Below, in pieces: positions 660 through 41,700 of a stretch of DNA of 61,485 nucleotides (the stretch's first letter is position 1; the number at the start of each line of letters is the position of its first letter). The stretch comes from an uncultured Planctomycetaceae bacterium (lineage in GTDB: Bacteria > Planctomycetota > Phycisphaerae > SM23-33). Location: contig CAZCDM010000001.1 in the NCBI GenBank assembly GCA_964497475.1, forward strand, positions 1 through 61,485, given 5' to 3'. The notes under the pieces were generated by a model. The model had not been told where the DNA came from and did no database searches. It worked only from the letters and a program-made list of their open reading frames with translations. The position numbers and the translations under genes were made by a program.

Positions 660-838
660 CTCCCTTCGTGCGATACGTCACACGACTCATCTTAGCATGA
701 TCTTAACCTCGCATTAGCACCTAAATTGCAAAAGCGATTTATGATGGTTGTCCGCGACTGGCCGAGCTGAGCAAAGAGAATTTTCGCTTGATCGTCCGGA
801 AGCACCCCCCACCCCCCACGCCGCAGGCTGAGAGAACG

Positions 839-2734: not shown

Positions 2735-2740
2735 TCGATC

Positions 2741-4924: not shown

Positions 4925-4925
4925 G

Positions 4926-6911: not shown

Positions 6912-6937
6912 TCAGCATTGGAAAGGACGTTATCAAA

Positions 6938-8491: not shown

Positions 8492-8728
8492 ATGTCTTTG
8501 ACCTCGAAAGCGTACCAACGTCTTTGCCACATGTATCGCGTTGTTCTGATGAAGATGCGTGTGAAGAACTTCATGCAGTTTGCGTATCACTCGCCATTGG
8601 CGGGCAAACGCAAGGGCAGGGGCGGTCTGCGCCGACGGCGAGGTGGCGAGGACGGGGCCACTGCGCGCGGAGGGGGTGTTGCGCCATCCAAGCGTATCGA
8701 GATGCTCGAGCCGCGCGTCATGCTTTCC
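8492..8728 (+). other. N-terminal leader: Arg/Gly-rich stretch followed by the LEPRVMLS motif (8705-8728)
   Basis: Translation: MSLTSKAYQRLCHMYRVVLMKMRVKNFMQFAYHSPLAGKRKGRGGLRRRRGGEDGATARGGGVAPSKRIEMLEPRVMLSGTPL. There is no classical hydrophobic signal peptide. LE(P/D)RxLLS after a basic stretch is a motif I recognise from the N-termini of large Planctomycetota (and some Verrucomicrobiota) extracellular proteins. Confidence 0.6.
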
Positions 8729-17700: not shown

Positions 17701-20700
17701 CGGCGGGGCGGTCACTGTCGAGTACGACGAGTGGACTCAGACGTATTACGGCATTACGAAAATCGTCGCCGATGGTGGCGAAGGCGATGACGTCTTTGAC
17801 GCCTCGGGCCTGCGGGATGTTCGCCTGGAGATCGATGGCGGGGCGGGCAACGACCGGATCATCGCCGGTGCGGCGGCCTCGGCCGTTCTGACCGGCGGCG
17901 CCGGAGATGACGTCCTGGACGCCTCACGGTCCTGGTATGCCTATCTCCACGGTGGCTCGGGCAGAGATACCCTTATCGGTGGCTATGGGAATGACGACCT
18001 GATCGGAGGGACGGGTGACGATTCGATCACCGGCAATGCCGGCGACGATCGCATCACCGGTGGCGCCGGGGCCGATACCATCGCCGGCGGCCAGGGCGAT
18101 GACACCTACCTCTTCGGCGATGCCTGGGGTAGTGATCGCTACCGCGACACCGAAGGCACGAGCACGCTGGACTACTCGGGCGTCACGGGCGACCTGACGA
18201 TCACGCTCAACCAGCGTGGGGCGGAAATCATCCATGGCGAGTCGCGTGAGGTGGTTACCCCGGCCGGTGATGTGCAGGACATGATCACCGATGCTTTGCT
18301 GACACCCAACCCGTACAGCCGCCCGCAGATTCCCATGCAGGAAGTCCAGGGCCTGGTGATTCACTATGTGGGGAATCCCGGCTCCAGCGCGATGGACAAC
18401 CGCAACTACTTCGAGTCGCTGAAAAACGGCGCCGGGTATGCCTCCAGTCAGTACATCGTCGGGCTTGAGGGCGAAATCATCCGCTGTGTACCGGAAGACG
18501 AAGTGGCCTATCACGCCGGAGGGGCAAACTATACCGACCTGGCACGCGATCGGTTCTGGGATGCCAATCGCGGGCGGATTTATCCGCACGACAAGGTCAT
18601 CGGCATCGAGACCTGCCACCCCGATTCGACGGGACAGTTCACGCAGGTTACGGAAGATGCTCTCGTGGCGCTGTCGGCCGATATCGTCCGCCGCTACGGG
18701 CTGAGCCGCGATGAGGTCCTGCGGCATCATGATGTGACCGGCAAGGACTGCCCCAAGTATCACGTCGATCATCCCGAAGCCTGGGAAGCGCTGGTCGACC
18801 GGATCATGGCTGCTGCGGCCCAGACGCCGGTCGAATCGGGCAGCGAGACCGTTGTGACCACGCAGCTCGGTGCGGTGCAGACCGGCCGCGGCGACGTTGG
18901 AAATATTATCACCCGCTTCGGCGATTTTGATCTGAACATCGGTCGTCCGGTCAGTGCCTTCGGTGCCGATGAAACGACCCAGCGGCTGGCCGAGGGGCTC
19001 GAAGAACTCAGCCAGTATGCACGCGACATGAAGGACTCGCTGCTGGAAGACATCGCCGGTCAGATCGGCCAGCAGATTCCCGGCACGGGCCTGAGCGTCG
19101 ATGAACTGCTCGACATGCGGGCGTATCTCGGCCTGGGCGATTACATCCAGGCCTACCTGTGGGGCTATACCCACCCCAGCGAGCCGCTGCCCGACAGCGA
19201 ACTGGACATCCCCATCGGTACCGATGCCGAGCCGACGGTTGGCGGGTTGGTCGACTACCTCGAGAGTTACTGGTTCCCGGCCCTGCTGGGAGGCCAGGCC
19301 CAGGGAAGCCCGATGACCCTTTCGTTCTCCAAGACCGACGGCGTGGTGACCGGGCTGGCGATGGATTTTGACGGCGAGGCCACCTACACACGCGACATTC
19401 TGGTTTCGCTTGGCTCCGACGCCGAAGCGCTGGGGCTGCAGTTGGCTGCCGACCAGACCGCCACCGTCGAAATCACCGCCGGGCTGGACTTCTCGATGAG
19501 CCTGGACTGGTCCAGCGAGACACCCGCCTGGAGCTATCAGGTCGACGAGTTGACCTTCGACGCACAGGCCGACCTAGACGGTGTGATCCTGGACGGAAGG
19601 GTCCACGATCTGGCGGTCACGACCGGCCGCGCCGGGGCCTCGGCCGGTACGTTCGACCTGACGCTTGATGCGGATATCACCCATGCCGCCGATTCGCTGA
19701 GCCTGACTCACAGCGGCACGGTGGCCCTGATCATGCCGATCTACGCCGAAATCGCCGGCACGCATGTCAACACCGCCCCGGCGAGCCTCTCGATTACAGG
19801 CGATATCGACGCCGGGACGAGCAGCTTCAACGCCATGAACTTTGAAACCTTCGACGCTTTTGCCGACGTCGAGGTCGAGACGATCATCCAGCGTCTCGAA
19901 ACGCTGGGCCGATGGGTCGAGGGCCTGGCTGGGCCCGACATGGGCGCGGTGGAAATCCCCTCGCTGGGCCTGACCGTGGGTGAACTCTTCCAGCTTGAAG
20001 ACAGCTGGGCCGCAGCCTATTCGCAACTGGACCTCAGTGGCGCGACAACCATTCAGGATGTCCTGGCTGCGATCGAATCGGCCGGGCTCGTTGCCAATGG
20101 CCAGGCCATCAGCTATGACGCCATCGAGCGAACCATTACCGTTCCGATGAGCTTCGACCTGAGCCTCGCAGACGTCCAGGAATTGCTGGTTAATACCGGC
20201 GGTCACTACGACGCAGAGTTCGAGGCGATGCTGCTCGATGCAATCGCCGCTCTGGCCGGCTCGGCCCGTGCGGAGGTCACCTTCGTTATCGATGCTGACG
20301 GCCCCGGCGCGACCGAAGGCTTTACCACCTCGGCTCAGATGCACATTACCGCTTCGGCCTCGGACATCCACTTCCCAGCCCGACTGGGCGACCTGGAAGT
20401 CAGCGTCGGCACCGAAGCATCCGGCACGGCTGAGATCGATCTGACGATGACCGCTTCGATGATCGAAGCGAGTGAAACCTTCGACCTGACCACCGGCGGA
20501 ACGATGAATGTCTACCTGCCTGTCTATGCGACCCTGGCCGGGACGAACATCAATCCGACACACACGGCAGGGCTGAGGCTGACGGGAACGGCCTTCGGCG
20601 CCGGTGGCATGGCCGTGACGACCGAGAATTTCGACAACCTCGTGGCCTTCGAGACGCTGACAGCCCAGCAGTGGCTCGACCGCATCGAACAGGCGGCCCG

Positions 20701-23700
20701 CTGGCGGAGCAACGACCTGGCTGCGACGGTGATTCCCTCGCTGGGGATGACTCTCGGCGATCTTGTCGATTTCGAGGCGATCTACACCGCTCTGATCGGT
20801 GGCGTCGACACCGCTGGCGTCGAGACGTTGCAGGATCTCGTCGCGGCCCTTTCCGCCGCCGGCGTGGTCGCCCCCGGGCAGAGCATAACATACGACGCGG
20901 CCGGGCGACGGATTTCCCTGCCGATGCACTTCGCTCTGGACGTCACTCCCATTTTCGAGCTGACGGCCGAGCTGGGGAGCAGCTATACCGCCGAACTCGA
21001 AGCCCTGCTGATCGAGACCATCGAGGCCATGGGCGATTCGATTACGGCCGATCTGGTTGTGTCGGTTGACCTGGACGGCGCGGACGGTTTGACGGATCTG
21101 ACCTGGCTGAGCGACCTGTCGGTGACGGCTTCGACCACTCGCCCGCAGCAGGATACGCTGTTGGGCGATCTGGAAGTGACCCTCGGCGACGGAACCACCA
21201 ACCCGACGGCTTCGATGAACATTACCGCCTCGTCGAGTCTCCGCGAGGCCACGGGCGATTTCACCATTTCCACCGCCGGTGACGTCGATGTCTACCTACC
21301 GTTCTTTGCCACCCTCGCCGGCGCTGACGTAACCCCCAGCGGCATTGCCGGCGTGCACTACCAAGGCGATATCCTGCCTGGCGATTCGACCAACGCCGTT
21401 GCACTGACCGCAGAAAATTGGGAAAACCTCGCCGAGTTCGAAGCCCTGACCGTCGAGGATATGATGACCCGGCTCGATGGCATTGCCTCCTGGCTGGATA
21501 CGCTGGGAGCCAGTGATCTCTTCGGTCAGCAACTGCCGTTCCTGGCCGAACGGCTTGGCGATGTGCTGGACTTCGGCACGGCCTTCCGGCAGGAAATTCT
21601 CGGGCAGGTCGACTGGGCTTCGGTCACCACGCTGCAGCAGTTCGTGGAGGCCTTCGAGTTGGCGGGCGTTCTGCCCGTTGGCGAGTCGATCATCTACGAT
21701 CCGTCCAGCCAGACCATCCGCCTTCCGAATGTGTTTGACCTGTCGCTGAGTACGTTCGACATGGAAGATCTCGACGCGCTGGGTCTGGTCGATACGGATT
21801 ATCTCATCGGCCTGGGGCTGCTGGACGTGGACGATCTTGACGGGCTGGATACGACGGGCTGGGGTCTCGACGATGTACTCGGTGCGGGGCTGCTCAGTCG
21901 GGCCGATCTGTTCGGCACGCTGGAGACCATCGCCGCGGCCGATCTGGTCAGCCACTCGCTGGTCTCGGCCCAGGAGATCACCGATGCGGGCTTCGACCCG
22001 GCCGGGATGATCGGCCTGGCCGAGCTGCTGGAAAGCGGCCTGACGAGCCTGGATCAGCTGGTGGCGGAAAACCTCGTCGCCCGGCAGCATCTCGACGACC
22101 TGGGGCTAATCGATATCGATCGGCTGAACCTCGAACCTGGTTCGCTGAATGAAATCTACGACCGCAATGTCCTGGTAGATTCCGTCTACGGTGAAAGCGT
22201 CGATCTGGACTGGATTCTCGACGAGGACTACATGGGCCTGGCCGAGCTGGTCTCGCTGGGGCTCATTGATAGCGGCGATCTGGACGGGTACGACTTTGAC
22301 TATTTCGGCCTGGATGACCTGACCCTGGAGCTGGGCGAGAACTATGGCTTGGACCTGGTGGGCCTCGAGGCCGAGCTGGCTGTCGACCTGCAGGCCAGTG
22401 TTGCCGCCGCGTTTGATATCGTTATCGACCTCGATGCCGCCGACGATGCCGGCGAGCTGACCTGGTACGTCGACGAGCCTACCTTCACTGGTTCGGCGAG
22501 CTTCGATATCAACAACACCGCCTCGCGTGGTCGGCTGGGCTTTATCGGCGTGACGATGGGTGATGTCGGCGGGCTCGACAGCCGCGTCGTGATGAACGTT
22601 GCCGGCACGGCGAGTCTGGATACATCCTCGACCCTGGCCGATCTCGATGAACTCCTGGCGGGTAACCTGTATGAGGATTTCACGGTCGACTACGGAGCGG
22701 GATCAATCGACCAGGCCGACCCCGAAGCGACGGGTGAGGCCTACGCGGTCTTCCGCGGGATCAAGATCCGCACCGGCATTGGCGGTATCCCGGCGGCCCA
22801 TGATGCGGAAATCTGGCTTAACGTCGCCGATGTCACCGACGGAACGATCAGTCTGGACATGCAGGACGTGCCGTGGGATTTCTATAAGCATCTGCGCATC
22901 GAGGATGTCCTTGAACTTCTGCACCGGGCCAGTGAGTATGTCCACGACGGGCTTGAGCAGTTGCCGTTCTTCCAGGCCGATGCGACTCTGCCGGATGGTA
23001 CGCCCAATCCGTTTTATGACATGAAGTTGCCCGGCCTGGACATCAGCCCGCGGGAGATCCTTGGGCTGGTGGACGATTTTGACGCGGCGGTCGAGCAGTT
23101 TGAGCAGGAAATCTACAAGCCCGAGAACGATCTTCAGGCGGCCCTGGCGTACCTCAAGGAGCGGCTGGGGATCAACCTGGAAAGCCCCGACTGCCTGACA
23201 GTCTACATGCAGGGCAACTTCATGCGGTTCGATTTCGATCTGCAGTTCCTCACGCGGCAGGCCTTCGGGTTCGATCTGAATATCGGGCAGTTCAAGGAGT
23301 TTGCCACCGGCGGGGCCGACAGCGGCTGGGATGATCTTGACCAGATGACTGCCGGAGCTGGGGCAAGTGGCGCGGCGTATCTGGCGGCCTTTGCGCATGT
23401 GGTCATCGAGGCTGGCATCGACCTCGGCCCGGACAACACCGGCGACGTGTTCCTCTACGAGTACAACGAGACGGTCGATTCGCAGACCAACGAAACCATC
23501 ATCAGCGGCACACGGCTCGAAGCGGGGCTCAAGGCGTTGGGCGAAAATCTCACGATGGCCTTCTCGACCGGTCCGCTGACCATCGGCGTCGATGGCGGGG
23601 CGATCACGATCGACGGCGACGGCGATGCGACGACCAACGTTGAAAATCTCCAGGACGAAGCAACGTTCGACCCGGCCAATCACAGCGACTACGCGACGGT

Positions 23701-26700
23701 GAGCTTCCGCCTCGACGATGGCGACGACGCCGACGATGGCGTATGGACCTTCGGTGATACCTTCGACCTCAGCGGCAATGTGGATGTCGTCGTCACCGGC
23801 GACTTCCAGGTCGACTTGCCGATTACGCTGGAGGCCTTCGGCATTGACGTGCCGCTGGGCAATCTGACGATCGAGACCGTGGACGACGATGGCACGGGCT
23901 TGGCCGACCTGTTTGATTATCTCCGCGGCGAGACGACGACCCATCCGGTTATCGTCAACCTGCCGAATATATCTGAGAACGTCGGCGATCCGCTGAGCAA
24001 CCCGCAACTGTGGATTGGCCAGCCGCTCGAACTGCTCTTGCCGACCGTGGGGCAGCTCAAACAGCAGTTGCTCGATACCCTTGCCGTCGATCCCGACGAC
24101 ACCATCGCAGGGACAAGCATCACCTACAGCGACCTGTTCGGGCCGCAGGGCCTGGAAGGGCTGCTTGACGTAGACACCCAGGTCCAGGCCTACCTCGATC
24201 ATATTGAGGCGAACAACCTCTGGACCGGGCTGAGCACGAAGATGTTCGCGGCCGGGCTGATTCACTGGCTCAACGAGAACTGGCTCAGCCAACTGCCGGG
24301 CTTCGATCCCGAAGACGGGCCCTTTACCCTGCAGATCAATGAAGCGGCCACGCAGTTTACGATTCTTTTTGACGGGGCGATGGCCTTTGGTCATCTCCAG
24401 AGTGTCGACTTGGGCGGGGCTCTGGCCGATGCGGGCGTCGATGTTGTCGAAGGTACCTTCGACCTGGCCATTGAAGCTTCGGCGAGCCTGAGCTTCGAGT
24501 TCTCCGTGGATTTCACTGACACGGCCAATATCGATTCCGACTTCACCTTCCATTCCCTGGGCTTTGACATCGCGGCCTCGGCCGATGATATCGCCATGGA
24601 GGCTGACTGGGGCGTGATGGAAGCGGCCATTGGCAACGTCGAGGACCAGCTCGGCAGCATCGCCCTGCACTTTGGCGGGACGGTTACCTGGGACGAGACG
24701 ACGGGTTTCGGCTTTGACGCTACGGGCCATACCAACAGCCTGGCTATCGACCTGCCCCTCTACGCCCGCCTGGGCGAGGCGGTCTTTGGTGGCACGGCCG
24801 GCCCGCTGGCAGGTATTTCTCTGATCGACAGCGACCTGCTTGACAACAATGCGCCGGGCTTCACGCTGACCAACACGGAAAACCTGGGGCGGAACCTTAT
24901 CGGTGCCCTTGGCGGATATGTCGAGCAGTTGGCTGGGCAGGTCGCTGCACTGAGCGACCAGGTGGCCGGGTGGGGCGTGATGACCTCGACCCTTGGCGGC
25001 ACGGACGTGTCTCTCGGCGACCTGCTGAATCTCGAAGCACTCTTCGCCGTCGGCGAGTATATCCAGCATTACCTCCACCCGATGCTGCATCCGGGACAGA
25101 CCCTGCCGGCCGGCGATACGATCCCGGTGGGCGACTACTCAGCCACCGGCGACCTGCCGACCATCGAAGGGTTGCTGGACTACCTCAACACCCACTGGGC
25201 GCCCACCCTGGGCGGCGGGGCTGACGGGCTCAGTTGGAGTCTCGACGAAACCGGGCTGCACATCGCCTTCGCCGATCAGCTTGCTGCATCGCACACCATG
25301 ACCATCAACCTCGGCGACGATGCCACAGAGTATGGCCTGGGTGTAGACGGAGAGATGAACGTCGACGCGGCAGTGACTACAGATGTGGCCCTGGGGCTGG
25401 ATATCAACCTGCAGACTGGCGAGATGAACTTCCACCTCGACCAGCTCGATATCGCCATCGCCGGCAGTGTCAGTGACCTGATTCTCGCCGGACACCTCGG
25501 CCCGGTCGATCTGGCCATCGGCAAGGCCGACGGGGACAAGGGACAGATATCCCTCGACCTGGCCGCCGGGATCAGCTATGTCGACGGCGCCTTCGCGTTC
25601 CAGGCGACCAACGATCAATTCAACGTCACGCTGCCGATCTACGCGGCCGTGGGCGGGGAGAGCCTCACCGACGAGTCGGCCACCCCGCAGGTGACCCTTG
25701 CCGGTGGGATGTTTGGCGGCTCGCCGCTGATCTTCAACGCCAGCGACCTCGATGACCTGGTGAGTTTCCAGAACTTTGATCTCGACTCGGCCATCGCGAT
25801 GGTTCCGGCACTGCTGGACTGGCTGACGGATTACGCCGAGGACAGCCCGGCCCTGCGGACTGAACTGCCGCTGCTGGGGGGCAAGACTCTCGGCGAGGTC
25901 ATCGATGTCGTGACCGTCTTCACCGAGCAGGTCTCCGACAAGCTGGACTTCTCTGAGACGGTGACGATCGGCGATTTTGTCGGCGTGATTGTCGACAGCG
26001 GCATCGTGCCTGACGGCATGGACGTGACTTACGATGCGGCGACGGCATCACTGACCATTCCGGTGAGCTTCGACGTGATCTTCGATGTCCTGGAAGACCA
26101 GGCGATTGACCTGGGGCTGGACTTCGGCGACTCGCCTTTGGCGCAGATCAGCACCGAAGCCCTGGCCGATCTGGCCGCCGAACTGCATGGCCGGATCGAC
26201 CTGGTGATGGATTTTGACGGTCCCAATGGCACGGAGGGCATGAGTTTCTTCATGGACAATGTCGAGATCACCGGGCAGGTCGGTTTTGACGTGTCTGACA
26301 TGGAAGCCGCGGCCCGGCTGGGGATTCTTGGCTTCACGGCCGGCGGGCCCGACAGCCGCATTCTTCTTGACGCCACTGCTTCGATAACGGTCGAAGACCC
26401 CGACGACGAGCGAACGCGCTTCAGCTTCCAGGAACTCATCGGCGGCATCGTGACTAAGGCGGTCCAGTTCGATCTGACGGGGGATGCATCCGTCCGGCTG
26501 ACCGACCTGGCGGTGGAAGGGTTTGATTCCCTGAGCTTCGGCGAGAACGATGAATTCTTCGTGCGGGTCAATGACCTGGCCGACCTGACGACGACCGAGA
26601 TCGTCGCCATGCCGGACCTCAGCGGCTTTGATATCAGCAACCTCTCGAAGGACGACCTGCTGGCGGCCCTGGACCAGGCGGTTATGGTTCTGCGCGATTC

Positions 26701-29700
26701 GCTACGCTCCATGCCGATGTACCGCCAGACCATTCCGGTCATCAACCAGACGCCTGAGGAGTTGTTCACCATTGTCGAGGAATTTGGCGATGCCGTGGAC
26801 GCACTCCGCAACGACCCGGCCGGGGCGGTCCAGCAGCTCGAAGCTCGGCTGGAACAGGCCCTGGGCATTGTCGATCCGGACGATACGATTCTCAACTTCA
26901 CCCTCGACGGCCAGGTCCTCCGCATGATGCTGAACCTGGAGTATGTCCTGGCCAAGTCCCTGGGCTTCGATATGGACCTCGCGGCGGTCAAATCCCTGGC
27001 CGGTGTCGATGCCGGAGCTCTGGAAGGAGCCGATTCGCTTACCAGCGCCGACGCCACGGGCGAGCTGCTTCTCAAAGCCTTCGCCGATGCCCGCATCGAG
27101 CTGGGGATGGACTTCTCGGCCATGACCGATGACGATGGCAACCGCACCGGTGAGCCGGCGGACATCTTCCTGTACGACTGGGACGAAGCGACCCAGACCG
27201 GCACGAAGATTGAGGCTGGGTTCAAGGTTCTCGGCCGGGAACTGTTCCTCGGCGCCGAGATGGGCCCGCTCGAGCTGGAGGTGATCAACGGCGCGGTCAC
27301 GGTCGATACCGATGGGGACCCGACGACCAACCCCGAACTGCTCGACCCGGCCGACCGCAGCGACTTTGTGACCTTCACGGTCACGCTGGATCAGTTGCCC
27401 GAGGCCCAGGTCAGCGACGACGGGCGGTTCCGATGGTTCGGCGAGAGCCTCCTGAACAGCCTGGACTTCGATTTCGGTGGAGCCTTCTACGTCAATCTCC
27501 CGGCCCGACTCAACGCGTTCGGCGAGGTCTTCTACCTCACCGATACGCCGCTGCGGATCAGTGGCAATATGAGCCTTGATGGCTTCAGCGATGTGGAGTT
27601 CCAGTATCCGGATCTCAACGCACTGCTGGGGCAGATGACTTTCGATACCGGCCTGCGCATTGCCCTGGAAGAAGTTGGTCAGCTCATCGGCCAGCTCAAG
27701 GGCGACCTGCTGTCCAGCGTGAACCTCGACCGTGAGATTCCGGGTCTGGGTGTGACGTTTAACGAACTCTTCGGCAGCGGCGGGCTGGAAGCCTGGCTCG
27801 ATGTCGATACCCACATTCTCCAGTACGTGACCGATTACGACTGGTCCGGCGGATGGAACCGCATCGCCTTTACTTCCGGACTGCTGAGCTACCTGCAGGA
27901 CAACTGGATTTCCACCCTTGGCGGGTACGAGGATGGCACGGAAAGCCCGCTGAGCCTGAACCTCGGCGACAACGGCTTCGAGGTGGTCTTTAATGGCAAT
28001 GCCGGCTTCGTTCTGGACGACCTGCCGGTCGACCTGGCCGGCGAACTGGCCGACAGCGGCCTGGTCGTCACCGGCGATGCCGCCCTCGACGTTGAAGTCG
28101 ACACCGAAATGAAGTTCGCCTTCGAGGTCGGCTTCGATGGCAGTTTCGATTTCGACTTCGATTACTTCCGCTTCGACACCTCAGCTGACGCAGAAAATCT
28201 AATTTTCGGTGTCGAGTACGGCCCGCTGGAAGCCAGTGTCGGCCATGCCGACTACGACAAGGGCCAGCTCCATCTTGACTTGGGCGGCGAGATTCTCCAG
28301 CGCGACGGAAGCTGGCAGATGACACCCTCCGGCGGGGTGGATGTTTACCTGCCGCTGTACGGCGCGATCAACGGTGTGGCTGTTGGCGGGGCCGACGGGC
28401 CGCTGGCCGGCTTTGTGCTGACCGACAGCGCCTTGTTCGACGAGCAGTTGCCAAGCTATATCGCCCCAGACCAGTACGATGGGCAGGATCCGGCCTTTAC
28501 CGTGACCGGCCTGGAAAATCTGGGCAGGAACCTCAGCGGCCTGGCCGCGGGGTATCTCCAGGAACTCGGCGAGTACATCGAAGATCTTCGCGTCGACCTG
28601 ACTGGGAGCAACGGCAGTCTTGCCCAGTCGATCGTCGGAACCGATACCACCATTGCTGAGATGCTCGGCATGGACTCGCTTCTGAGCCTCGGGCAGTACA
28701 TCCAGCACTATCTCCATCCGTTTGTCAGCGGCGATGCCGAACCGCCCTTTGGTGAGGACATCGCCCTGGGCACCTACGCGGAGGGATATCCGACCGTCAG
28801 TGGCCTGGTGGAGTACCTCAACACCAACTGGGTGCCGACCTTGGCTGATGATGACATGGGCTTGCGCTTCGCCATGGACGCCAACGGGCTGACCGTCAGC
28901 TTTGATGGAGCGTGGAATGCGGGGACCACGGTCGGCTTTGACCTGGGCGACTGGGCGGAGACGGCCGGCGTGGAACTCACCGGCAGCGGCGATGTGAACC
29001 TGACGGTCGCGGCCGATCTGGATATGGCCTTTGCCCTGGACTGGACGACGGGCAGCTTCGACTTTGACCTCAATGAACTGATTTTCCAGGCCTCGGCCGA
29101 TACCCGCAATCTTGTGCTGGGCGCAGCGGTCGGTCCGCTGGATGTCAGCATCGGCCGACTCGGCGGGCAACTTGGCGAGATGGCCCTGAGCCTTGGCGGA
29201 ACGGTTTTCACCGACGAGACGACCGGCGCGTTGCGCTTCACGGGTGGCGGGAACAACACCATCGACATCGACCTTCCGCTCTATGCCACCCTCGCCGGTG
29301 AGGACATGACCGACCCGGCCGCTTTGCCCCGGCTGCAGCTCAGTGGCGATCTGTTCGCGCCTGTTCTGGCCACGCCCAACTTCGACCAGCTCATGGATCA
29401 GGTCGCCTCGATGGACTTCCAGACCGTCCTGGCGATGATTCCCGATCTGCTGACCTGGCTGGGCGACCTGGCGGGCGAATCGGCCTTCATGCAGACGACC
29501 CTGCCGTTTACCGATGGCGTGACTCTCGGCGAGTCGCTGGACTTCGTGACCAGCTTCGCCGACGAAATCCAGCAGAAGATCGACTTCAGCCAGGTCGATA
29601 CCCTGGGCGAATTCGTCTCGGCGTTCAACGACGCTGGCGTGCTGCCCGAGGGCGAACTGATTACCTATGATGCCGTCGCCCAGGCTCTGCGCGTACCGCT

Positions 29701-32700
29701 GGCCTTTGCCAGTGACCTGGCCGTCATGGAAGACCTCGCTCTGGATCTGGGTATGGATCTGGGCGATTCGTCCCTGGCCGAACTCTACACCGAAGCCCTG
29801 GCCAACATGAACGCCTCCGTGGCCGGGCAGGTCGATCTGGTGATCGACTTCAGCGGGTCGGAGGTGAGCCTGGCCGTGGAAGATCTCGAACTGTCCGGCT
29901 CGGCCGAGCTGGACGTCACTGACTTCGAGGCCGGGCTGGTCGTTGGCCCGCTGGCGATGACTGCCGGTGGCGCGTCGACGGGCAGCGGTCTGCACTTCGC
30001 CGTCCAGGCCGACTTGGCCTTGGATCGCGATCCGGCCGCGGTCGTTGCGGGCGATACTCGCTTTACCCTCGGCGAATTACTCGATGGCTCGGCCCTGAGT
30101 CACCTTGTCGCCAGCATCGACGGCGATGCCTGGGCCAAGCTCCAGGGGCTGGCCCTGGAAAGTGGAACGGGCGCGTTCGATGTGCCCATCGCCTCCGATG
30201 CACAGGTCTCCATCTGGCTGCCTGATCTGGGCGGCGATAATGCTCCGGCCCAGCTGGCCGATTTCCTGGCCAGCAAGACCCTCCAAGGGCATGTCGTCAC
30301 AGAGGTCGGCTCGCCCGGCGATCCGGGCTACATGATCGTCGTCTATCCCGACCTCGGCGATGCGCTGTCGCTGGGCAACCTCACCCGCGGCGACCTGATC
30401 AACGCGCTGTTCGAAGGCCTCGATCTGCTCGACGGACTTCTCAGCGACATGAGCTTCTACAACCAGGACCTGCCGCTGGTCAACCAGTCCCCGGCCGACC
30501 TGTTCGACTTCCTCTCGCGGATGCGCGTGGCCATCCAGTCGATCGATATCAACTGGGATGGCTTTGACTGGGGCACGCTGGACTTCGGCCACTTCGACTG
30601 GAGCGGCCTGAACTGGGGCGGGATCGACTTTGGCGCGTTGAACTTCGGAACCTTCGGCTGGGCATCGGGTGGCGGAGCCACCGACGGGTTGAACCTCGGC
30701 TCGTTGGATATCAGCGGCCTGGACTTCGGGGCCTTCGACTGGCGGCGGTTCGACTGGACGGCCCTGACCGGCGGGGCTCTGTCGACCAGCGGTGCGAACT
30801 GGGCAGCGATGGACTGGAGCCCGTTGAACCTTGGTTCCCTGAATCTCGGTCAGCTGGACCTCAGTGGACTGGACTTTGGCCAACTCGACTGGAGCGGATT
30901 CGACTGGGCGGGTCTGTTCGGGCAACTCGATCTCGGCCAGCTCGACTGGAGCCGTCTCGATGTAAGCGGAATGGACTTCGGGGGCATTGATCTCAGCAGC
31001 TTCGACCGCAATGCCGATCCGTCCACGTGGAATTGGGCCAGCGTCGATTTCAGCGGGTTCGACTGGGCGGGCCTGAACTGGGGCGAGCTGAACTGGGGCG
31101 AGCTGAACTGGGATGCCGTGGACTTCAGCCAGCTTGACTGGTCGAACATGAACTGGCCCAGCGGCCTGTTCGAGGGCCTCAACTGGGGCGATCTGAACTG
31201 GGGCGATCTGGACTGGGCTGCCGTGGACTACAGTCCGATTGATTCCTCCTTCGATCCGGCGGGCATTGACTGGGCCTCGATTGATTTCAGCGGCTTGGAT
31301 TTCGGCTCGATCGACTTCAGCAAACTCAACTGGGCCAGCCTCGACTGGGCGAATTTCGACTGGGGCGGCCTGGACTTCGCCGGGCTGGACTTCAGCGGCT
31401 TTGATTTCGGCTCGCTCGACTGGAATGCCCCGAATCTGGGCGCCCTGGACTGGTCGGGCCTGAACTGGGGCGAGCTGAACTTCGCCGGCATCGATATCGG
31501 CGGCGGGATCCAGTCGTTGGAGACCAGCATTGAAAAGGCCCTCGGCATCGCGGAAGACAATTCCCTCGATCCGATGGATCAGATATTCTCGCTGTGGATG
31601 GACGGCCAGAGCTTGCGGGTTCATCTGGACACGGACATGTTCTACCACGAGCAGATCACCTTCAACCTCGAACTGGCAGAGTTGCTGGCCGACGCCGGTG
31701 TCGATCCGGAGGTGATGGACATCCTCAGCCAGCTCGTCGCCGCCGATGGCAGCGGCACGCTGGACCTGGCCGCCTTTGCCGAGATCGGGATGGACCTGGA
31801 GATCGACCTCTCCGATGGCACGCCGGTTGTCCAGTTGATGGACTATGACGTTGCCAGCGGTTCCGGAACCCATTTCGATGCCGGCCTGAAGGTGATCGGG
31901 AGCAATCTGGACCTGACGGTTACCGCCGGCGAGGGGCTGTTGAGCCTGGCCATCGATGATGGTACGGTCACCGTCGATGCCGATGGCGACTCGGCCACCA
32001 ATCCCGAGCAGGGCGATCCGAACCTGTTTGTCGATTTCGATTCGTTCCAGGCCCAGTGGGACGCTTTCCTGGCGGCGAACCCGGGCTTCGAGCTGACCGG
32101 CTATGACTTCTCCGACCCGACCGACCTGCAGCAACTCTACGGCCAGAGCGTCCACTTCCTCGATTGGGTTCGATTCATTGGCGGCATGCCGGTGTTCGAC
32201 CTGTCGGCCTATGATCTCAGCGACTTCCTGACCTTCTCCGTCCACAAGACCGCCTCCGGCGTGGATGCGGCCCTGGGTGGCAGCTTCGATGTCAACCTGC
32301 CGGTCACACTCGACCTCAACGGCTACATCGACGATCTGGACAATGTCCCGATCCATCTCGGCGGCTCGTTCAGCCTGGCCGATGGCCTGAGCCTCGCGAC
32401 CCCGACGCTGCCTGATATCGCCGGGGCCCTGGGCGAGAATCTCGCCGATATCGGCATTGACTTGATGCTCCAGAGCCTCGCCGATCAGATCACCAACGCC
32501 AAGGATGCTCTCGTTGGCAGCATCGACCTTGACCAGCCCATCGCCGGAACCGACGCGACGATCAACTCGCTGCTGGGTGACGGCGGGGCCGAGGCCTTCC
32601 TCAGCATCGATCAGCACATCCACGAGTATATCGACTCCGTCACCGACTGGACCGCCCTGAGCCCGACCGAAGTGGCCGCCGGACTGATGGACTACCTCAA

Positions 32701-35700
32701 CGATCACTGGGTGCCGACCCTGCCGGGCAGCCTGGGCGGAACCAGCCCGTTCTCTATCGAGATGCTCCGCAGCGATGGTGCGATCAGTGGCTTTACGCTC
32801 GGTTTCGACGGAGAGGTCGCCTTCGCCGAGCAACTCATGCTTGACCTGGCCGATCAACTGGGCTCGGCCGGCATTGAGGTCGAGGCGGACATGAACTTCG
32901 GCGTCGATGTCGAAGCGGCCCTGGATTTCGACCTGACGATCGACTGGGCTCACGATGTGACCGACTTCACTCTCAACTCCCTCCGATTCGATGCCAACGC
33001 AGACGCGGCCGACATCCTTGCGGCGATTACCATCGGCCCGCTGGAAGCCTCGATCGGCCATGACGAATACGAAAAGGGCAGGGTCAACTTCGGCCTGGGT
33101 CTGCTGGCCCAGACCACCGGCGGGAGCCTGCAGTTCGAGCCGACCGCGTCCCTGCTGGTCGAGCTGCCGCTGTATGCTTCGATCGGTGGCATCAGCTTCA
33201 GTGCCGACGGCACGCCCGTGGCGAACGTCAAGTACACGAACCTCGACCTGTTCGGCGGCGGCAGCCAGGCCGACTTCGACACACTCCTGCAGGTCGATCT
33301 GGTCGACCTCAATCAGCTGATCGATGAAAATCTCATCAGCCAAGCCGACCTCAAGGACGGCTTGCGGCTGGGCGTTGATGCCCTCGTCACCGCCGGTCTG
33401 ATCAACGCTGGCGATCTCGATTCCATCGCCCGCGTGAATCTCGCGGCGCTACTGGAGACGGGGCTGGTTGATCTCCAGGCCCTGGCCGATGCGGGCCTGG
33501 TCGATCTCAGCGACCTGCGGAACCTGGGCGATTACGACCTCGATACGCTGATCGATGCCGACCTGGCCGATCTCGGGGAACTGGTCACCGCCGGAAAGAT
33601 CACCCAGGCCGACCTCGCCGACGGGCTGGCCGTCTCGGCCGGTGAGCTCATCGCCAACAATCTGATGACACTGGCCGATCTGATTGACAATCAGTACGTC
33701 GTGCTGGGCGACTTCAACGATCTCGGCCAGGCCGATCTGGACGATCTTCTGGCCGACGAGATTGTCGATTTCCTCGAACTGGCTGCCACCGGGTTCATCA
33801 CGGAAATCGACGTCGACGACTTGGGTTCCATGGCCCCGGCCGATGTCATCACCGCCTTGCCGAACGTGACGATGACCGACCTGGCCGAGCATATCACCGG
33901 CGGGCAGGTTGATCTCGATGCCGTCCTGGGCCTGGCCAACGTGACCCTCACGCAGATGGTTGAGGTCGGGCTGGTCGACGCAGCGAATCTGGACGATTTG
34001 GGACTGGCCCTGCAGGCCGACGTGGAAACCGCTTTGGGCATGACGGCCGGCGATCTCGATTCCCTGGCTGACGAAAATGGAAATGTCGACCTTGATGACG
34101 TTTTAGCCATGGCGGGGGTTTCCCTGCTGGACATGGTCAACGCCCAGCTGGTCGTCGCCGCCGATCTGCTTGACCTCGGCCTGGTCGATACGTCAACTGT
34201 CCTGGCCGGGTTGACGCATCTTTCGGCCGCTGATTTTGCCGACGATATCGTCGGCGGGCAGATTGACCTCAACGACGTGCTCGGGCTGGACAATGTGACC
34301 CTCACGCAGATGATCCAGGCTTCGATGACCACGCAGGCCGACCTGCTTGATTTGGGCCAGGCCGATCTGAGTGCATTGGTTGCCGGCGACCTGGCGAGTC
34401 TGGCCGACTTGGAATCTGACTCCTATATCGATGAGACGTTCCTCAAAGAGACGGCCTCGGCTTTGGTCGATTCGCTGCTCAATGACAGCCTGACCACCCT
34501 TGGTGAGTTGGTGGCAAGCCATCTCGTGACCCGCAGCGATCTGATCGATCAGCCCCTGGCCGATCTGGCTGAGCTGATAGCTGAGGATCTCGTCGATGTC
34601 GGCGGTCTCTTCGCGTCCGACATGCTGGACATCAACAATCTGGCTGGTCTGGGCGAGACAGCTCTCAGCGACCTGCTGGCGGCGACCAGCCTTTCCACCG
34701 GACAACTCAATGACCTGCTCGAAGTCGATGTGCAGGACCTGCTGAGCAATTCCTCGGTGACCCTGGCCGGGCTGATCTCCGGCGGGTTCATCTCGCACGG
34801 CGACTTCGCTGATCTGGGCAAGGCTCTCATCGGCGATCTCACCGCTGCCGGCGGGCTGCTGGAAGGTCTCCAGCTCGGCCTTGTGCCTGAGGGCATGGAC
34901 AACTTCCAGGTCATGCTCACCAACTTCGTGGCGGGGTATCTCAACGACCTGGCCGGCGAGCTGGTCAGCCTGCGGGAAGATCTCGCCGTCGAGTACGATG
35001 AGCAGGGCAATCGCATCAGCGACCACGTGCTGAGCAATCAGATCGCCGGGACCGATGCGAGCATCGACTCGCTGCTGGGGCTCAGCGATCTGCTCGGCCT
35101 GGGCGACTACATCCAGCATTACCTCCATCCGTATCTCAACCCGGGCGTCGATCTGCCGGCTGGCGATCCGATCCCTGTCGGGACTTATGCGGGCTATCCG
35201 ACCCTCAGCGGCCTGATGGAGTATCTCGACGTGAACTGGCTGCCGACTCTGAGTGCTCGCGACGGGGCGGGCATGAGCTACGAGCTGACGGAGAACGGCT
35301 TTGCCATCGACTTCGACGCCGATGTGACCTACAGCGACGAGATCGGTTTGCGACTTGGCGCCGAGGCCGACGAGTTGGGCTTCAAATTTGACGGAAATGC
35401 CGACATTGACGTCGACGTGACCAGCAATATCGACTTCGAGCTTGAACTGGACTGGCTGACGGGCGATTTCGGCTTTAACCTCAACGAGCTGGGCTTCCAG
35501 GCTGACGTATCCACAGACAACCTGGTACTCGAGGGCATACTCGGCCCGATTGAACTGGGTCTGGGCAGCAGTGAAAGTGGCGAGGAAATGGCCTCGGCCG
35601 CCCTGAGCCTCGGCGGGGCGATCAGCCTGGTTGACGGCGTCTTCGGCTTCACGCCGGCGACAAACACCATCGACGTCGATCTGCCCGTCTATGCCGAACT

Positions 35701-38700
35701 GGCTGGGGTGGATCTGGGCAATGGCGAGCGGCCTCGATTGATGCTCAGCGGAAGCCTCTTCGATGCGGGCGGCCCGACCTTCAGCCACGAGCATCTCGAC
35801 TCGCTGTTGAGCTTCTCGGACTTCGGCCCGATGGACCTGATCGTGATGTTCCAGGATACCCTCACCTGGCTGGAAGACTTCCGGGACAGCGACCTGTTCC
35901 AGACGGAAATTCCCTTCGTGAATCTCTCGCTGAGCGACGTGCTGGACTTTGCCAGTGCCTTTGATGAGAACATCCTCAGCAGGATCGATTTCCAGAAACC
36001 CTACGTCGAGCTGGCCAGTGGCACCGATGGCGTGCTGACGCTCGACAGCGACTTGTTTACCTCGACGGCAGTGACGTTCGATAGCGATTGGGTGGGCGAA
36101 CAGATTACCCTGGATGGCATTGACACGTTCACCATTGAAGAGGTCATCGATGACAACACCGTTCGCCTGGACGGTGTGGCCAACGGCGATCTGGCCGACG
36201 TGGTCTTCGCTGTCCACGAGCCGCAGGGCGACATTGAGACGATGCAGGAATTCGTTACCGCGGTGAATAACTCGGGCATCCTCGGTGGCCTGTCGCTTGG
36301 ATACGACCCGGCTGAACAGGTCTTCACGATTCCACTGTCGTTTGACATGAGCCTCCCGGCCGATCAGTTCAATGACCTGCCCATCGATCTGGGCTTCGAT
36401 CTGGGCGGTGATCTGGCCGGTGTGGATATCAACGCCGATGCCGACCTGACCGCCGATGTCCACGGTGCGTTTGACCTGGTGGTCGATTTCGATCCCAACT
36501 CGCTTCCGGCGATGATGATCGACAATGCCACAATCACCGCCAACGCGGCGTTTGACGTCTCAGGCCTGACGGCCGAGGCCATGCTGGGCTTCCTGCGGCT
36601 GACAGCCGGCGGACCTGACAGCGGCGTGCACTTCGCCGCTACCGCCACGGCCATGCTGGACCGCGACGGCGATGCCACCACCACCGACGACCGGCTGTTC
36701 GGATTTGACGACCTGATCAACGGGGAATTGGTCGATTCGTTCGACTTCGAGTTCACCGGCGATGCCTGGGCCCGCTTGCGGAGTCTCTCGGCTGGTACCG
36801 GCACGTGGGACGTGCCCATCGCCGAAGACGCGGAAATATCTGTCACCCTGCCGGACCTGACCGACTGGTCGACCGTCGAGGTTGTCACGCCGGACCTCTC
36901 GGGGTTGCTTGATTTCAGCGGCATTGACTTCCAGACCATCATCGACGCTCTGCAGATGGGGGTGGACATCGTCCAGCAGTCGCTGGCCGACCAACCCTTC
37001 TACAATGCGACCATTCCCGTCATCAACACGTCGCTGGCCGACACATTTGCTTTCATTGACGGCTTCATTGATCAGATCGACGAGGCGGCCTCGAACCCCG
37101 CCGGTGCGATCCAGGATGTCGAGGAAGCCATTGAGCGGGCTCTGGGCATTGACGACGCCGAAATCGACGGGTCCGGCCAGGCGATCGCAGCGCATGAGCA
37201 GGCATTCGCCCTGACGCTCGATACCGTCAATGAGGTTCTCAACGTTCACATCAACTGGGGCGCGGTCTACGCCGATGCGTTCGGCTTTAACCTCGATATG
37301 ATGGGCCTGTCGGGCGGCTTCGAACAGATTGCCAATTTTATGGACGTCAGTGCCGAGTTGGCGCTGGAAGCCTTTGCCGATCTGGTCATCGATGCGGGGA
37401 TCGACTACAGCACGCTCGGCCAGGGCGGGGGCCTGCCGGAAATCTTCCTCTATGATTACAACGACACCTTCGACCCGGCCGATGCGAGCTCGATCGAGGG
37501 AACCCACGTCGAAATCGGCGCACGGGTTTACGGCGACGACCTCAATCTCGCCTTGGACTTTGGCCCGCTGCAGGTCGGCGTGCTCAACGGCTGGGTCACG
37601 CTTGACGGCGATGGCGATGCCACCACGGACGACTTTGCTACGGTGCTGGTCTACCTCGATCAGGAGGACGAATCCGAGATCGCCGACGATGGCCGATACC
37701 ACTTTGGCCAGGAGTCGCTGCTCGATAAGAACCTCCAGTATGATATTACCGGCGGGTTCGATGTGACGCTTCCGCTGGATATGACCGTGCTTGGCCTGGA
37801 CCTGCCGGTCGGTGAGGATCTCTACATCCGCGCCCTGGCCGAAGACGGTCAGCCCAGCCCGCTGAAGCAGATGTTCACGTCGCTGATCGATCCGGATACC
37901 AGCTTGGGCGACATTCTCGAACCGGGCACGGGCATTCTCGATACCAATGCCCAGACCGTCCTGACTGAAATTCTGAACAAGTTTGATCTTAACGGCGGGA
38001 TGTTCTCGCTGCTGGGCCTGCTGAACGATCCGTCCTTCCTGCTGGATGGGGTGGACCTGGCCCTGGGCAGCCTGGAAGACGTGCTGAGCTCGAACCTGGC
38101 TGTCGACCTGCCACTGATCGGCGATAAATTGGCCAACGCGGCCGACTTCCTCCAAGAGATGCGGACGGGCATGCTTGCCGACCTGCGCGAGAAGCTCAGC
38201 GGCAACGGAAAGGCTATCGAGTACATCCAGGAAACCCTCTGGGACGTATTCGGCCCGACCGGTATGGATATCGTGCTGGACACCAACGCCGATGGCAGCA
38301 TCACGCTGGCCGATGTGATGGTCGGCTGGTACGACGCGAACGGAGTGTGGCTGGAAAGCTGGGAAGTTGGCGATGCGATTCCCGAAAACGCCGACGCCGT
38401 TCAGTTCGACGTGGCCCTGGGCGGGACCGCCTTTGCCACCGGTATCGACATCCCGCTGGATATCGACCTGCCGGGCTTTAGCCTGAACGTCGATGGTGGC
38501 TTTGCCCTGGAGATGGGCTGGAGCTTCGACTTTGGCATGGGCATCAGTCTGCTGGACGGGTTCTACCTGGCGACCAATGAAAGCGGCGAGAACCCCGAGC
38601 TGGAAGTCGGCATTAACGCCTTCCTTGATGGCGAGCCGATGGATCCTGACGTCACCACACGCTTCGACGCGGAAGGCAAGCTGCTGTTCTTCAAGGCCAC

Positions 38701-41700
38701 CGTGGAAGATACCGATCGCGATCCGGATACGCCGGGCTTCCAGCCGGGCGGGCTCTTCGGCGGTCTGACGGTCGATATTATCGGCAATGAACGTGACCGT
38801 CTGACACTTGACCGGATGCTGACGAACTTCAAGGATTCCTTCGACGTTTCGATGGGGGTCGAGGCCGACCTGTTGCTGGATATGACGTTGGCGATCGACG
38901 GCGCCGGCGGCCTGCCGACGCTCAAGGCCGACTTCGTCTTTGACTGGGCCTGGAATCTCGGCGAGGAAATGGAACTGCCCGATATCGGCCTGCAGAATGT
39001 TCGCATCGATGTGGGCGGCTTCGTACGCGACTTCCTCAAGCCGATTGTCGAGAAGATCAGTGACGTCCTCGAGCCCTTCATCCCGCTGGTCGACGTGCTG
39101 ACCCAGGATCTGCCCGGCCTGGATCAGATTCTCGACGATCCGAACCTCATGGGCCTGATCAACCTGATCCTCGAGCTCAAGGGGCGCAAGGCCATCGACT
39201 GGTCGTTCGTCTACGCCGTCGACGGGTTCATTGACTTCGTCCAGACCGTTAACAACATGACCACGGCCAGCGGTGAAATCCTGCTGGGCGACCTGATGGG
39301 CCTGGCCTCGGGGAACATCCAAGCCCGTGAGAAAGCCACCCTCGATGACTTCCCGACCGAGGTCACGATGGAAGGCACGAACAGCAGCTTCAATGCCGCC
39401 AGCATGCCGTTTGTCTACTCCGGCAAGAACGCCGATGGCAAGCCGAAGATCCTCTTCGGCCCCGACGAGGGCGACACCCCGGCCATGCTGCGGTTTGATT
39501 ACATCTTCGACCTGCAGAACTGGATGCAACTGCTTTCGGGCGGCGATGCGACGTTGTTCACCTTCGACGTTCCGAAACTGGAAGTCTCCTTCGACTTCTA
39601 TCAGACGCTGGTGACCTTCCCGCTCGGACCGGTTCTGCTCGATATCAGTGCATTCGGCAAGTTCAAGGCCATGGCCGACCTGGCCTTTGGATACGATACC
39701 TACGGCATTCGCCAGGCTATCCGGAGCCGCAACCCGTGGGACGCATTCGACGGGTTCTTCGTGGCGGATTACTCCCTGGCCACCTGGACGGAAAAGCCCG
39801 AGCTGACCTTCAGTGCTGAAATCGGGCTGGCCGCAGCAATCAACGTGATTCTCGTCGAGGCCGGCCTGGAAGGCAGCCTGATCTTCGAGACCGATATCGA
39901 CCTGCAGGACATTGCGGTTCCCACCCTGTACACCCTCATTGATGCCACGGGTGAGAAATCATCCAATTACGACGAACTGATCGACAAGGTGGATGATACC
40001 TTTGAGATCGGCGGGGTAACCTACGGGCAGGACTGGGAATCGGATGGCAAGATCCGTGCCAGCGAAATTGTCACGATGTGGAATTACGAAAACGGTGGGT
40101 TCAAGAACCTCGTGAACCTGACAGCTGAGCTGCGGTTGAAGATTGCTGCGTTTGTCGATGTGGGAATCAAGATTCCGTTTGTCGGTAAGGTCATGAAGCG
40201 GATCATCGACATTACGCTGGTCGATTCGACTCTGCTGGAGCTGGAATATAACGCGCCCAACGTCCAGCCTGTTCTGGGCGAACTCAGCGGTGGAACCCTG
40301 ACGCTGAACACCGGTGAACGTGCCAGCCAACGGTTGTATCTGGATACCGAAGATGGTGGCGAAAATGTCCGCCTGATCGGCGACAGCAACGACCTGTATG
40401 TGGTCTTTGGCGACTGGGTGCAGAAGTTTGAAGGTGTGACCGAGGTCATTGCCGATGGCGGCGAGGGCGACGATGTCTTTGACGCTTCCGAGGCCACCGG
40501 CATTACGGTGACCTTCGACGGCGGGGCAGGCAAAGACCGCCTGATCACCGGTGAGGCTGGCGGAACCTTGTATGGCGGCCTCGGCAAGGACACGCTCGAT
40601 GGCAGCCTGGCCACGGCGGCAGTGATCCTCGTTGGCGGCGAGGGGGACGATTACCTCATCGGTGGTGTCGGCGATGACAAACTGACCGGCGGGCTGGGTG
40701 ATGATAAACTCATCGCCGGAGCCGGCAATGACGAACTCGACGGCGGCGAAGGAGTTGACACGCTGCAGGGCGGTGCCGGCGACGATACCTATCTCTTCGA
40801 GGAACTTTATGGCATTGACCGCTTCCGCGATACCGAGGGGATCGTCACGCTGGACTTCTCGGCCGTTCACGCACCACTGACCGTTACGGTCAATCGCAGC
40901 GGGATTACGGCCCGGCTGGATGACGGCAGCGAACTCTCGGCCCGTCGTGCCGATATCGATCATGTCAAACTCGGCCTGGGGGATGACCTCGTCGTCATCA
41001 ACGACTTCCCCGAAGGCGAGCTGACCCTGACCGATGCCGGCGGCAGCGACGTATACGAAGTGCACCTCGGCCGGGCCACCTCGCCCAAGGCCGAGGGTAT
41101 CATTGACATCATTGATGAGACCGGCACCGATGACGAAGTCGTCATCGAACAGAAATACGACCGGATGCCCGTCGAGCTGCGCACCTATGAGGTCAAGAAC
41201 GGTCGTGAGGTGCTGACCTTCTCGCAGGAGGTCGAGTACGAAACCCTCATCGGCCAGGCAGCCCAGTTTGACGGCGAGATGATTGAGGGCTATGGCGAGG
41301 GCGTATCCTGGACGAACACGGAAGAAGGCTCGGAAGGCATTTCCGACTTGGGCGATGTGCATTTCCGTGCGATCGGCAAGACTCTCAAGGCCGACAGTGA
41401 ACTGCGGGCGACGGATATCACCATCGAGGTCGCTGAGTTGGTCGATGTCAATGCCAGCCTCGTCGCGACTGATTTCCTGGACATCACCGCCCAGGACCTC
41501 GACGTCGACGCCACCATGCTCGATGCCCCCACGCAAAGCTGGACCCTCACCAACGGAATCGAAATCGATGCGCTGGTTCAGTCCTCTGCCCGCGTCTCCG
41601 CAAGCGGTGCCTACCTGACGTTCAGCGGTACGATGGACTCAGTTGACGTCGACTGGGACATCGTCGGTGCGATCAATCTGACCGGCTCGTTTACTTCGAC

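Follow-up and report, generated by a model that had tools for sequence, protein, structure and literature searches.

How did a tandem array of Trp- and Phe-rich five-residue units come to occupy a single site in a giant planctomycete protein, and what kind of structure would such an array form? The array lies in a stretch of 61,485 nucleotides (referred to here as the window) from an uncultured Planctomycetaceae bacterium (GTDB lineage Bacteria; Planctomycetota; Phycisphaerae; SM23-33), which corresponds to positions 1 to 61,485 of the forward strand of contig CAZCDM010000001.1 in the GenBank assembly GCA_964497475.1. It is encoded within a giant open reading frame (ORF), and the coordinates of all features are collected in Table 1. 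We favour, at slightly better than an even chance, the reading that the array is a divergent pentapeptide-type beta-solenoid, which originated from a linker and would now give a giant surface protein of a planctomycete a spacer or binding rod that is rigid, acidic and rich in aromatic residues.

The periodicity of the array is readily seen in its translation. An earlier reading made from the sequence alone (the sequence-only reading) had described about 60 consecutive units, quoting LNWGE LNWGE LNWDA VDFSQ LDWSN as examples. The quoted units are indeed present at aa 7528-7552 (nt 31073-31147), and both the pattern and the approximate count hold, at 53-60 units; their strict consecutiveness does not, because eight register breaks (GGGATDG, LTGGALSTSG, the four-residue LFGQ, FDRNADPST, PSGLFEG, SPIDSSFDPAG, NAPNLGA and a terminal GGG) interrupt the array, and the longest run without a break is 16 units. 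Unit composition was counted over the 41 units that are spaced exactly five residues apart, out of 60 motif matches. Position 0 is occupied by L (26), I (5), F (5), M (2), V (2) and A (1), position 1 by D (27) or N (14) in all 41 units, position 2 by W (21, about 51%), F (13) or L (5), and position 3 by G (20), S (14) or A (4), while position 4 is variable. At a lag of five residues, the autocorrelation reaches 0.72 for D/N and 0.65 for aliphatic residues. Trp makes up 9.1% of the array versus 1.1% elsewhere in the giant protein, the net charge of the array is -45, and no comparable motif density is found elsewhere in the 17,664-aa protein.

This periodicity goes together with a sequence kinship to pentapeptide-repeat proteins. 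When the array was compared with the PDB using phmmer, the significant matches were all pentapeptide-repeat proteins (4yfo, 7.3e-5; Qnr 3pss, 2.7e-4; and QnrB1). A profile built from nine Trp-type arrays (A1) aligns without gaps over ~130 residues to solved proteins, both designed and natural, with E-values of 2.7e-10 for 4yfo, 7e-8 for 2w7z and 1.7e-5 for 3pss; in these alignments D/N falls over D/N, and W/F over the central Leu. An exhaustive HMMER search with the array returned 523 matching proteins, which grade without a gap from Trp-type arrays into Phe-type arrays and on to classical pentapeptide-repeat proteins. In an alignment of 27 segments from these matches (A2), Pentapeptide_4 is detected in 19 of the 27 and PF00805 in 17. 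By comparison, a word-indexed homology search with the array found only one protein (P0001, described below), and its profile version gave five matches. The register common to all alignments places L/I/F at i-2, D/N at i-1, W/F/L at the central position i and G/S at i+1, such that units like LDWSG and LDFSG parallel the classical ADLSG.

The best relative of the array (E 3.4e-58, 37% identity over about 270 aa) is a metagenomic protein of 1,558 aa, P0002, with units such as IDFSG FDFTG LDLSS. P0002 scores 152.8 bits with PF00805 and lies above the cut-off of NCBIfam Alr5209. Like the array, it has a bulky i-2 residue, in 90% of its units; unlike the array, it has a Phe/Leu centre (0% Trp), passes Pfam Pentapeptide and is an unrelated host protein. 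The relationship to A(D/N)LXX repeats that the sequence-only reading had proposed from the five-residue periodicity is thus borne out by the PDB matches, the Trp-type profile and P0002. Two other identities were considered and rejected. The array matches Lamprin, a lamprey cartilage protein with GGLGY repeats, at 34.5 bits (cut-off 34) when excised and at 19.4 bits in context, over 35 residues with a G/L/F periodicity, and we judge this match to be compositional. Pentapeptide_2, of the mycobacterial PPE type, matches archaeal look-alikes only (29-34 bits) and not this array. Nor is the array matched by the RTX nonapeptide family (PF00353, with GGxGxDxUx repeats); the giant protein has its PF00353 matches at aa ~3171 and ~10732 and nowhere else.

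The array is an insertion relative to its paralogs. A module of ~1,000 aa without known domains occurs six or more times in the giant protein, and its copies share 25-37% identity and invariant motifs such as FYN..IPVIN and ALGI. For the module half upstream of the array, homologous copies lie near aa 697, 1645, 5761 and 9248, and partial matches around aa 3783-4776. Five paralogous copies align on either side of the array, and in these the site holds only a linker of ~11 aa, as in RVA-DAAANPVAT-LQQVES. The array-bearing copy reads RVA-IQS-[array]-GGG-IQSLETS, where the right-hand IQS is part of a conserved motif: IQSLETS aligns with LQQVES, LQSIES and IQDVEE of the paralogs. Searches for orthologues or alleles of the host module found none in genome contigs, metagenome contigs, viral contigs or a 5.8-billion-cluster protein search; in the protein search, a 797-aa query from one module gave no homologue.

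The array is bounded by two pairs of 9-nt direct repeats, both of which are exact at the positions given by the sequence-only reading. As claimed, 975 nt (325 codons) separate the two copies of ATCCAGTCG, which has no other copy on the + strand of the window; this spacing keeps the frame of the ORF. The further proposal that recombination between these copies would restore the linker of the paralogs fails, for the product would read RVAIQSLETS, which is ~11 residues shorter than RVA-DAAANPVAT-LQQVES. Since this deletion product is shorter than every paralog by about the length of the linker, the array was substituted for the linker and not cleanly added to it. As a background, we compared boundary windows 600-1100 nt apart at random placements within the giant ORF and found that in-frame 9-mers are shared in 0.8% (+/-15 nt) to 4.4% (+/-30 nt) of placements. 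Given this rate, the direct repeats are real but only modestly unusual. The second pair, ATCGATATC, is not independent evidence, because the + strand of the window has 8 occurrences of this 9-mer, which codes for a unit of the array type.

The DNA of the array records how it grew and how old it is. Tandem Repeats Finder (TRF) reports just three tandem stretches inside the array, all short and two of them near-perfect, and the perfect 15-nt repeat at 31073..31112 is the product of a recent single-unit slippage. Block duplications of seven and ten units are also recognizable (Table 1). Otherwise the units have diverged, with a mean pairwise nucleotide identity of 53%; among 44 pairs of neighbouring units, just 2 reach a DNA identity of 93% or more, and for L, D, A and F the codon homozygosity in the array is the same as over the whole ORF. 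Synonymous sites have thus been randomised, but the amino-acid pattern has been preserved: the array is old, and selection on that pattern maintains it as protein. Its GC content is 0.627 and its GC at third codon positions (GC3) is 0.83, compared with a GC3 of 0.80-0.82 in the flanks; this match shows that the array is native. The array is therefore neither a recent microsatellite expansion nor a foreign cassette. Two of the register breaks, through the segments RNADPS and FDPAG, give a weak hint that paralog-linker sequence may have been caught up in the repeat-block duplications.

In the reading that we favour, the array would be a Trp/Phe-centred member of the pentapeptide-repeat superfamily, folding into a beta-solenoid rod of about 13-16 turns. 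It would have originated in place, in the ~11-residue linker between two sub-domains of one ~1,000-aa module copy, and grown by slippage of 15-nt units plus duplication of 7-unit and 10-unit blocks, with selection on the h-[D/N]-aromatic-small-x pattern keeping it. As a rigid spacer, such a rod would measure about 6-7 nm and push the module halves apart. Its surface would be repetitive, Asp/Asn-rich and possibly aromatic, and a periodic face of this kind could perhaps bind a polymeric ligand such as glycan strands; the same protein carries a peptidoglycan amidase domain.

Several results weigh against this reading. In direct scans of the array, Pentapeptide_4 (PF13599) gives an E-value of 1.8e-4 but only 21.9 bits against a gathering score of 38, PF00805 and PF13576 do not match, and NCBIfam QnrE reaches 23.7 bits against a cut-off of 480, so that the array does not enter Pfam Pentapeptide on its own. 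Pentapeptide-repeat proteins are a large and well-understood solenoid family with a packing rule, a small residue at i-2 and Leu/Phe at the centre. A small residue (A/S/C/T/V) at i-2 is needed for core packing, and in the array 96% of i-2 residues are bulky. In the register chosen by HMMER, the inward side-chain volume (i-2 plus i) is ~252 A3 per unit, or 880-1,120 A3 per four-unit turn; classical proteins hold 145-166 A3 per unit, and the array about 1.6 times as much. With both inward positions bulky, a canonical four-sided helix would be overpacked. The packing puzzle that the sequence-only reading had raised is therefore upheld, and the anomaly is both real and testable. Furthermore, that reading had named a structure prediction without a beta-helix as a result that would refute it, and no beta-helix was built. 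AlphaFold2 run on a single sequence (aa 7328-7694) gave a pLDDT (predicted local distance difference test score) of 38.6. With a 28-sequence alignment composed of Trp-type, Phe-type and classical arrays, the pLDDT rose to 56.5, with a pTM (predicted template modelling score) of 0.34, and DSSP assigns helical turns to the model at a period of five, and almost no strand. A Foldseek comparison of the array models with the PDB returned a best E-value of 3.3 and no pentapeptide-repeat protein. These models are not decisive, however, being of too low confidence to refute a solenoid or to support any particular geometry. Finally, any ligand of the array is putative, and its binding role is one that we infer.

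The overpacking could instead mean that the array is a non-canonical solenoid, folded and periodic but not a classical four-sided pentapeptide helix, which we regard as unlikely though as the strongest of the competing explanations. The register could be shifted, with L/I/F at the centre, G/S/A at i-2 and an exposed Trp/Phe ladder that binds glycan, peptidoglycan or membrane; alternatively, there could be more than four units per turn, with a wider core that holds Trp plus Leu. The 1.6-fold excess of inward volume argues for a solution of this sort, and the shifted register would bring the volume to ~125 A3 per unit (an estimate from position counts), near the classical range. AlphaFold2 did not arrive at the classical fold despite the classical pentapeptide-repeat proteins in its alignment, other solenoid cross-sections are possible for sequences close to pentapeptide-repeat proteins (PMC13123833), and Trp-type arrays recur in unrelated, unannotated proteins, among them Poseidoniaceae proteins of 1,653 aa, small tail-anchored membrane proteins and the ectodomain of a histidine kinase. 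Nevertheless, profile alignments consistently pick the classical register, in which four of the five positions fit [STAV][DN][LF][STR][G], and a shifted register would expose about 58 Trp/Phe side chains, which would be very aggregation-prone. A Trp superperiod of 20 residues, corresponding to four units per turn, was also sought and gave no clear peak (0.24, 0.32, 0.33 and 0.26 at lags of 10, 15, 20 and 25), so the Trp autocorrelation lacks the superperiod that would tell the number of units per turn, and the low-confidence models support no specific geometry. Taken one step further, and doubtful to a similar degree, h-[D/N]-W-[G/S]-x arrays could form a distinct class of beta-solenoid that is absent from the PDB and falls below Pfam thresholds. 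Its members may be the present array, the Poseidoniaceae proteins and the small tail-anchored membrane proteins, and either its core would be enlarged, to more than four units per turn, or it would expose four Trp/Phe ladders with a 4.8 A spacing. If that were true, the exposed ladders could provide a periodic platform for binding glycan or peptidoglycan strands on giant surface proteins.

A more sceptical explanation, and an improbable one in our estimate, dispenses with a defined fold altogether: the array would be a low-complexity, largely unstructured or elastomeric 'sticker-spacer' linker, made by slippage and tolerated in a loop. The low pLDDT in both predictions, the slippage signatures, the compositional match to Lamprin, an elastin-like protein, and a Gly+Ser content of 27% are all in keeping with it. 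Against this, L, W, F and I make up 35% of the residues, the five-residue phase is strict, D/N is invariant in the strict units, and randomised synonymous sites alongside a retained amino-acid pattern speak for purifying selection on that pattern. Moreover, a pLDDT of 50-69 exceeds the values typical of disorder, and the similarity to folded pentapeptide-repeat proteins is significant. Least probable by far, to the point that we give it little weight, is an excisable or phase-variable cassette, whereby the 9-nt repeats mediate clean in-frame loss and gain of the 975-nt array and produce long and short isoforms. It is true that exact in-frame direct repeats bound the array, that deletion between them would preserve the frame and that the perfect 15-nt tandem copies point to slippage that is still active. 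However, comparable positions of the ORF share 9-mers by chance at the rate given above, nine nucleotides are a poor substrate for recombination, and the deletion product would lack the ~11 linker residues that are found in five of five paralogs. The array is also old and not recently inserted, with a native GC3, and the insert, being purely in-frame repeat coding sequence, has no mobile-element features. For the same reasons (an insert made up entirely of in-frame repeat coding sequence, native GC and GC3, and old internal divergence), a transposable or excisable insertion with target-site duplication was rejected.

Table 1. Features of the giant ORF and of the pentapeptide array within the window (positions in nucleotides of the window unless marked aa).
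Feature	Position	Strand	Evidence and remarks
Giant ORF	8492..61485	+	ATG at 8492; 3' end incomplete; >17,664 codons; contains the pentapeptide array
Pentapeptide array proper	30542..31507 (aa 7351-7672, 322 aa)	+	~53-60 units h-[D/N]-[W/F/L]-[G/S/A]-x
Host module, upstream half	29342..30532 (aa 6951-7347)	+	self-BLASTP, 28-35% identity, E down to 4e-53
Host module, downstream half	31508..32707 (aa 7673-8072)	+	self-BLASTP to aa 6113, 2038, 1054, 4881, 9540
Module copies in the giant ORF	aa ~697-1448, 1645-2236, 4302-5263, 5761-6471, 6951-8072, 9248-9767	+	self-BLASTP
ATCCAGTCG, left copy (Ile-Gln-Ser)	30533..30541	+	exact match
ATCCAGTCG, right copy	31508..31516	+	exact match; inside the conserved IQSLETS motif
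ATCGATATC (Ile-Asp-Ile)	30542-30550 and 31490-31498	+	exact match
15-nt tandem repeat, 2.7 copies (LNWGE LNWGE)	31073..31112	+	TRF, 100% matches
15-nt tandem repeat, 2.5 copies (LNWGD LNWGD)	31181..31217	+	TRF, 95% matches
Block duplication, 69 nt	31069-31137 / 31174-31242	+	repeat search, 87% identical, offset 105 nt (7 units)
Older block duplication, 82 nt	30690-30771 / 30840-30921	+	repeat search, 71% identical, offset 150 nt (10 units)
Further block duplication, 74 nt	within array	+	repeat search, 70% identity, offset 414 nt
Register break FDRNADPST	31001..31027	+	weak resemblance to RNDPAG, the linker in the neighbouring paralog copy (aa ~6113)
Register break YSPIDSSFDPAG	31229..31264	+	includes DPAG; weak resemblance to paralog linkers NDPAGAV, SNPAGAI
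LEPR-XLL N-terminal motif	8693-8743	+	NCBIfam NF012209, 22.5 bits versus cut-off 17
RTX repeats of the giant ORF	18002-18106 and 40685-40789	+	Pfam
Amidase_2 domain (peptidoglycan amidase)	18338-18757 (aa 3283-3422)	+	Pfam

The Trp-type arrays closest to this one, with units such as LNWGD, LNWGS and FDWGS, occur in hypothetical proteins of Candidatus Poseidoniaceae (marine group II archaea), namely P0023, P0058 and P0001. They resemble the present array in unit type (42-44% identity) and in being internal to large unannotated proteins (1,200-1,700 aa); they differ from it in being only ~140-160 aa long and in having unrelated host proteins. A search for a partner domain in the C-terminal region of these proteins gave only sub-threshold hints of a lipase-type alpha/beta hydrolase. 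In the P0058-type family, the array is internal and is followed by a region with the serine-hydrolase-like sequence GHSVGG. P0001 (558 aa; L001 2690-8070, on a Poseidoniaceae-like TARA scaffold) begins at the end of an open frame of 1,235 codons and probably represents the C-terminal portion of a P0058-like protein of ~1,650 aa. Smaller proteins of ~210-240 aa (P0089, P0152, P0153 and P0154) consist of a charged or signal-peptide-like N-terminus, an hDW[GS]K array and a predicted C-terminal hydrophobic helix, a layout that points to membrane or surface display of Trp-type arrays. Other Trp-type arrays were found in a histidine kinase, N-terminal to its dCache domain, and in a protein with a cadherin-like domain; among these relatives, none is annotated, none lies above the Pfam Pentapeptide cut-off and none has a structure. 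The contexts of Trp-type arrays are mostly extracytoplasmic.

As for the host itself, no stop codon interrupts its reading frame between 8324 and the end of the window. The protein is very acidic (D+E 16.5%, K+R 3.7%), and a Pfam scan of its remainder gave nothing beyond the RTX repeats and Amidase_2. It is most likely a giant, secreted or surface LEPR-XLL protein of a planctomycete, and its LEPR-XLL N-terminus, RTX repeats and Amidase_2 domain place the array in an extracellular, cell-wall context. The minus-strand ORFs of 300-1,600 aa that overlap the giant ORF (30077-33343 and many others) were set aside: they are most likely GC-rich shadow frames of the 53-kb + strand ORF and not genes.

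Upstream of the giant ORF are four genes, which encode a GAF-HlyD adaptor, a fusion of an HExxH intramembrane-protease-like part with an adaptor, a SecA-like protein and a second HlyD adaptor. The first three form a cluster at 788-7945 on the + strand. In its 727-aa product, an adaptor-like part is joined to an HExxH part that resembles intramembrane metalloproteases (daptide-type, sub-threshold); the SecA-like ATPase of the cluster, at 661 aa, lacks the C-terminal part (scaffold and wing) of canonical SecA. Judging from these sequences, the cluster has the look of an uncharacterised system for export or processing. Relatives of the SecA-like gene reach 65% identity, and most of them are from metagenome-assembled genomes (MAGs) of Planctomycetota, including Planctomycetaceae, Pirellulales, Phycisphaerae and Sedimentisphaerales; a planctomycete origin of the window is therefore very probable. 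The three-gene synteny is kept in most of the first 14 related loci (from Planctomycetia and Phycisphaerae MAGs), and the second HlyD gene is frequently close to the cluster in related loci. A functional tie between the giant gene and the upstream SecA-like and HlyD genes was considered and found no support: in 36 other loci with the cluster, mostly from Planctomycetota MAGs, no homologue of the giant ORF adjoins it. Since its syntenic relatives have no such homologue beside them, the cluster is a neighbour of the giant gene and not a dedicated partner.

Why should a single array of this kind matter? In just one of six paralogous modules, a short inter-domain linker has become a selected domain of 322 aa through slippage and block duplication. 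Together with its scattered, unannotated look-alikes, the array enlarges both core positions while keeping all other hallmarks of the family, and it thereby puts the packing rule to the test: either the pentapeptide fold has more plasticity than was assumed, or there is a new solenoid geometry or a surface of aromatic ladders. The practical impact of the array is modest unless a ligand turns up.

Two known systems are worth comparing with this locus. The giant genes described in Planctomycetota and the wider PVC (Planctomycetes-Verrucomicrobia-Chlamydiae) group by West-Roberts et al. (bioRxiv 10.1101/2023.11.21.568195) likewise exceed 10,000 aa, are largely unannotated, carry cell-wall-degrading and adhesion-type domains and have nearby a SecA-like gene without the C-terminal scaffold and wing parts. 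Unlike in that report, which does not mention pentapeptide arrays, the SecA-like gene here belongs to a three-gene cluster that stands in 36 other loci without a giant gene beside it. The second comparison is with the pentapeptide-repeat proteins themselves (PF00805, PF13599, PF13576), represented by QnrB1 (2xtw), AhQnr (3pss), EfsQnr (2w7z), Np275/276 (2j8k) and the designed 'beta1' series (4yfo). With these the array has in common its tandem units of strictly five residues, in which the second position is D/N, the third hydrophobic, the fourth S/G and the fifth G. Its strongly acidic surface also parallels that of the DNA-mimic members of the family. Where it departs from the classical members is at the core, with L/I/F in place of Ala/Ser/Cys/Thr at i-2 in nearly every unit and Trp at the centre of about half of them, and in its setting, for the classical members are cytoplasmic proteins of ~200 aa, while this array sits as an insertion within a giant extracellular protein.

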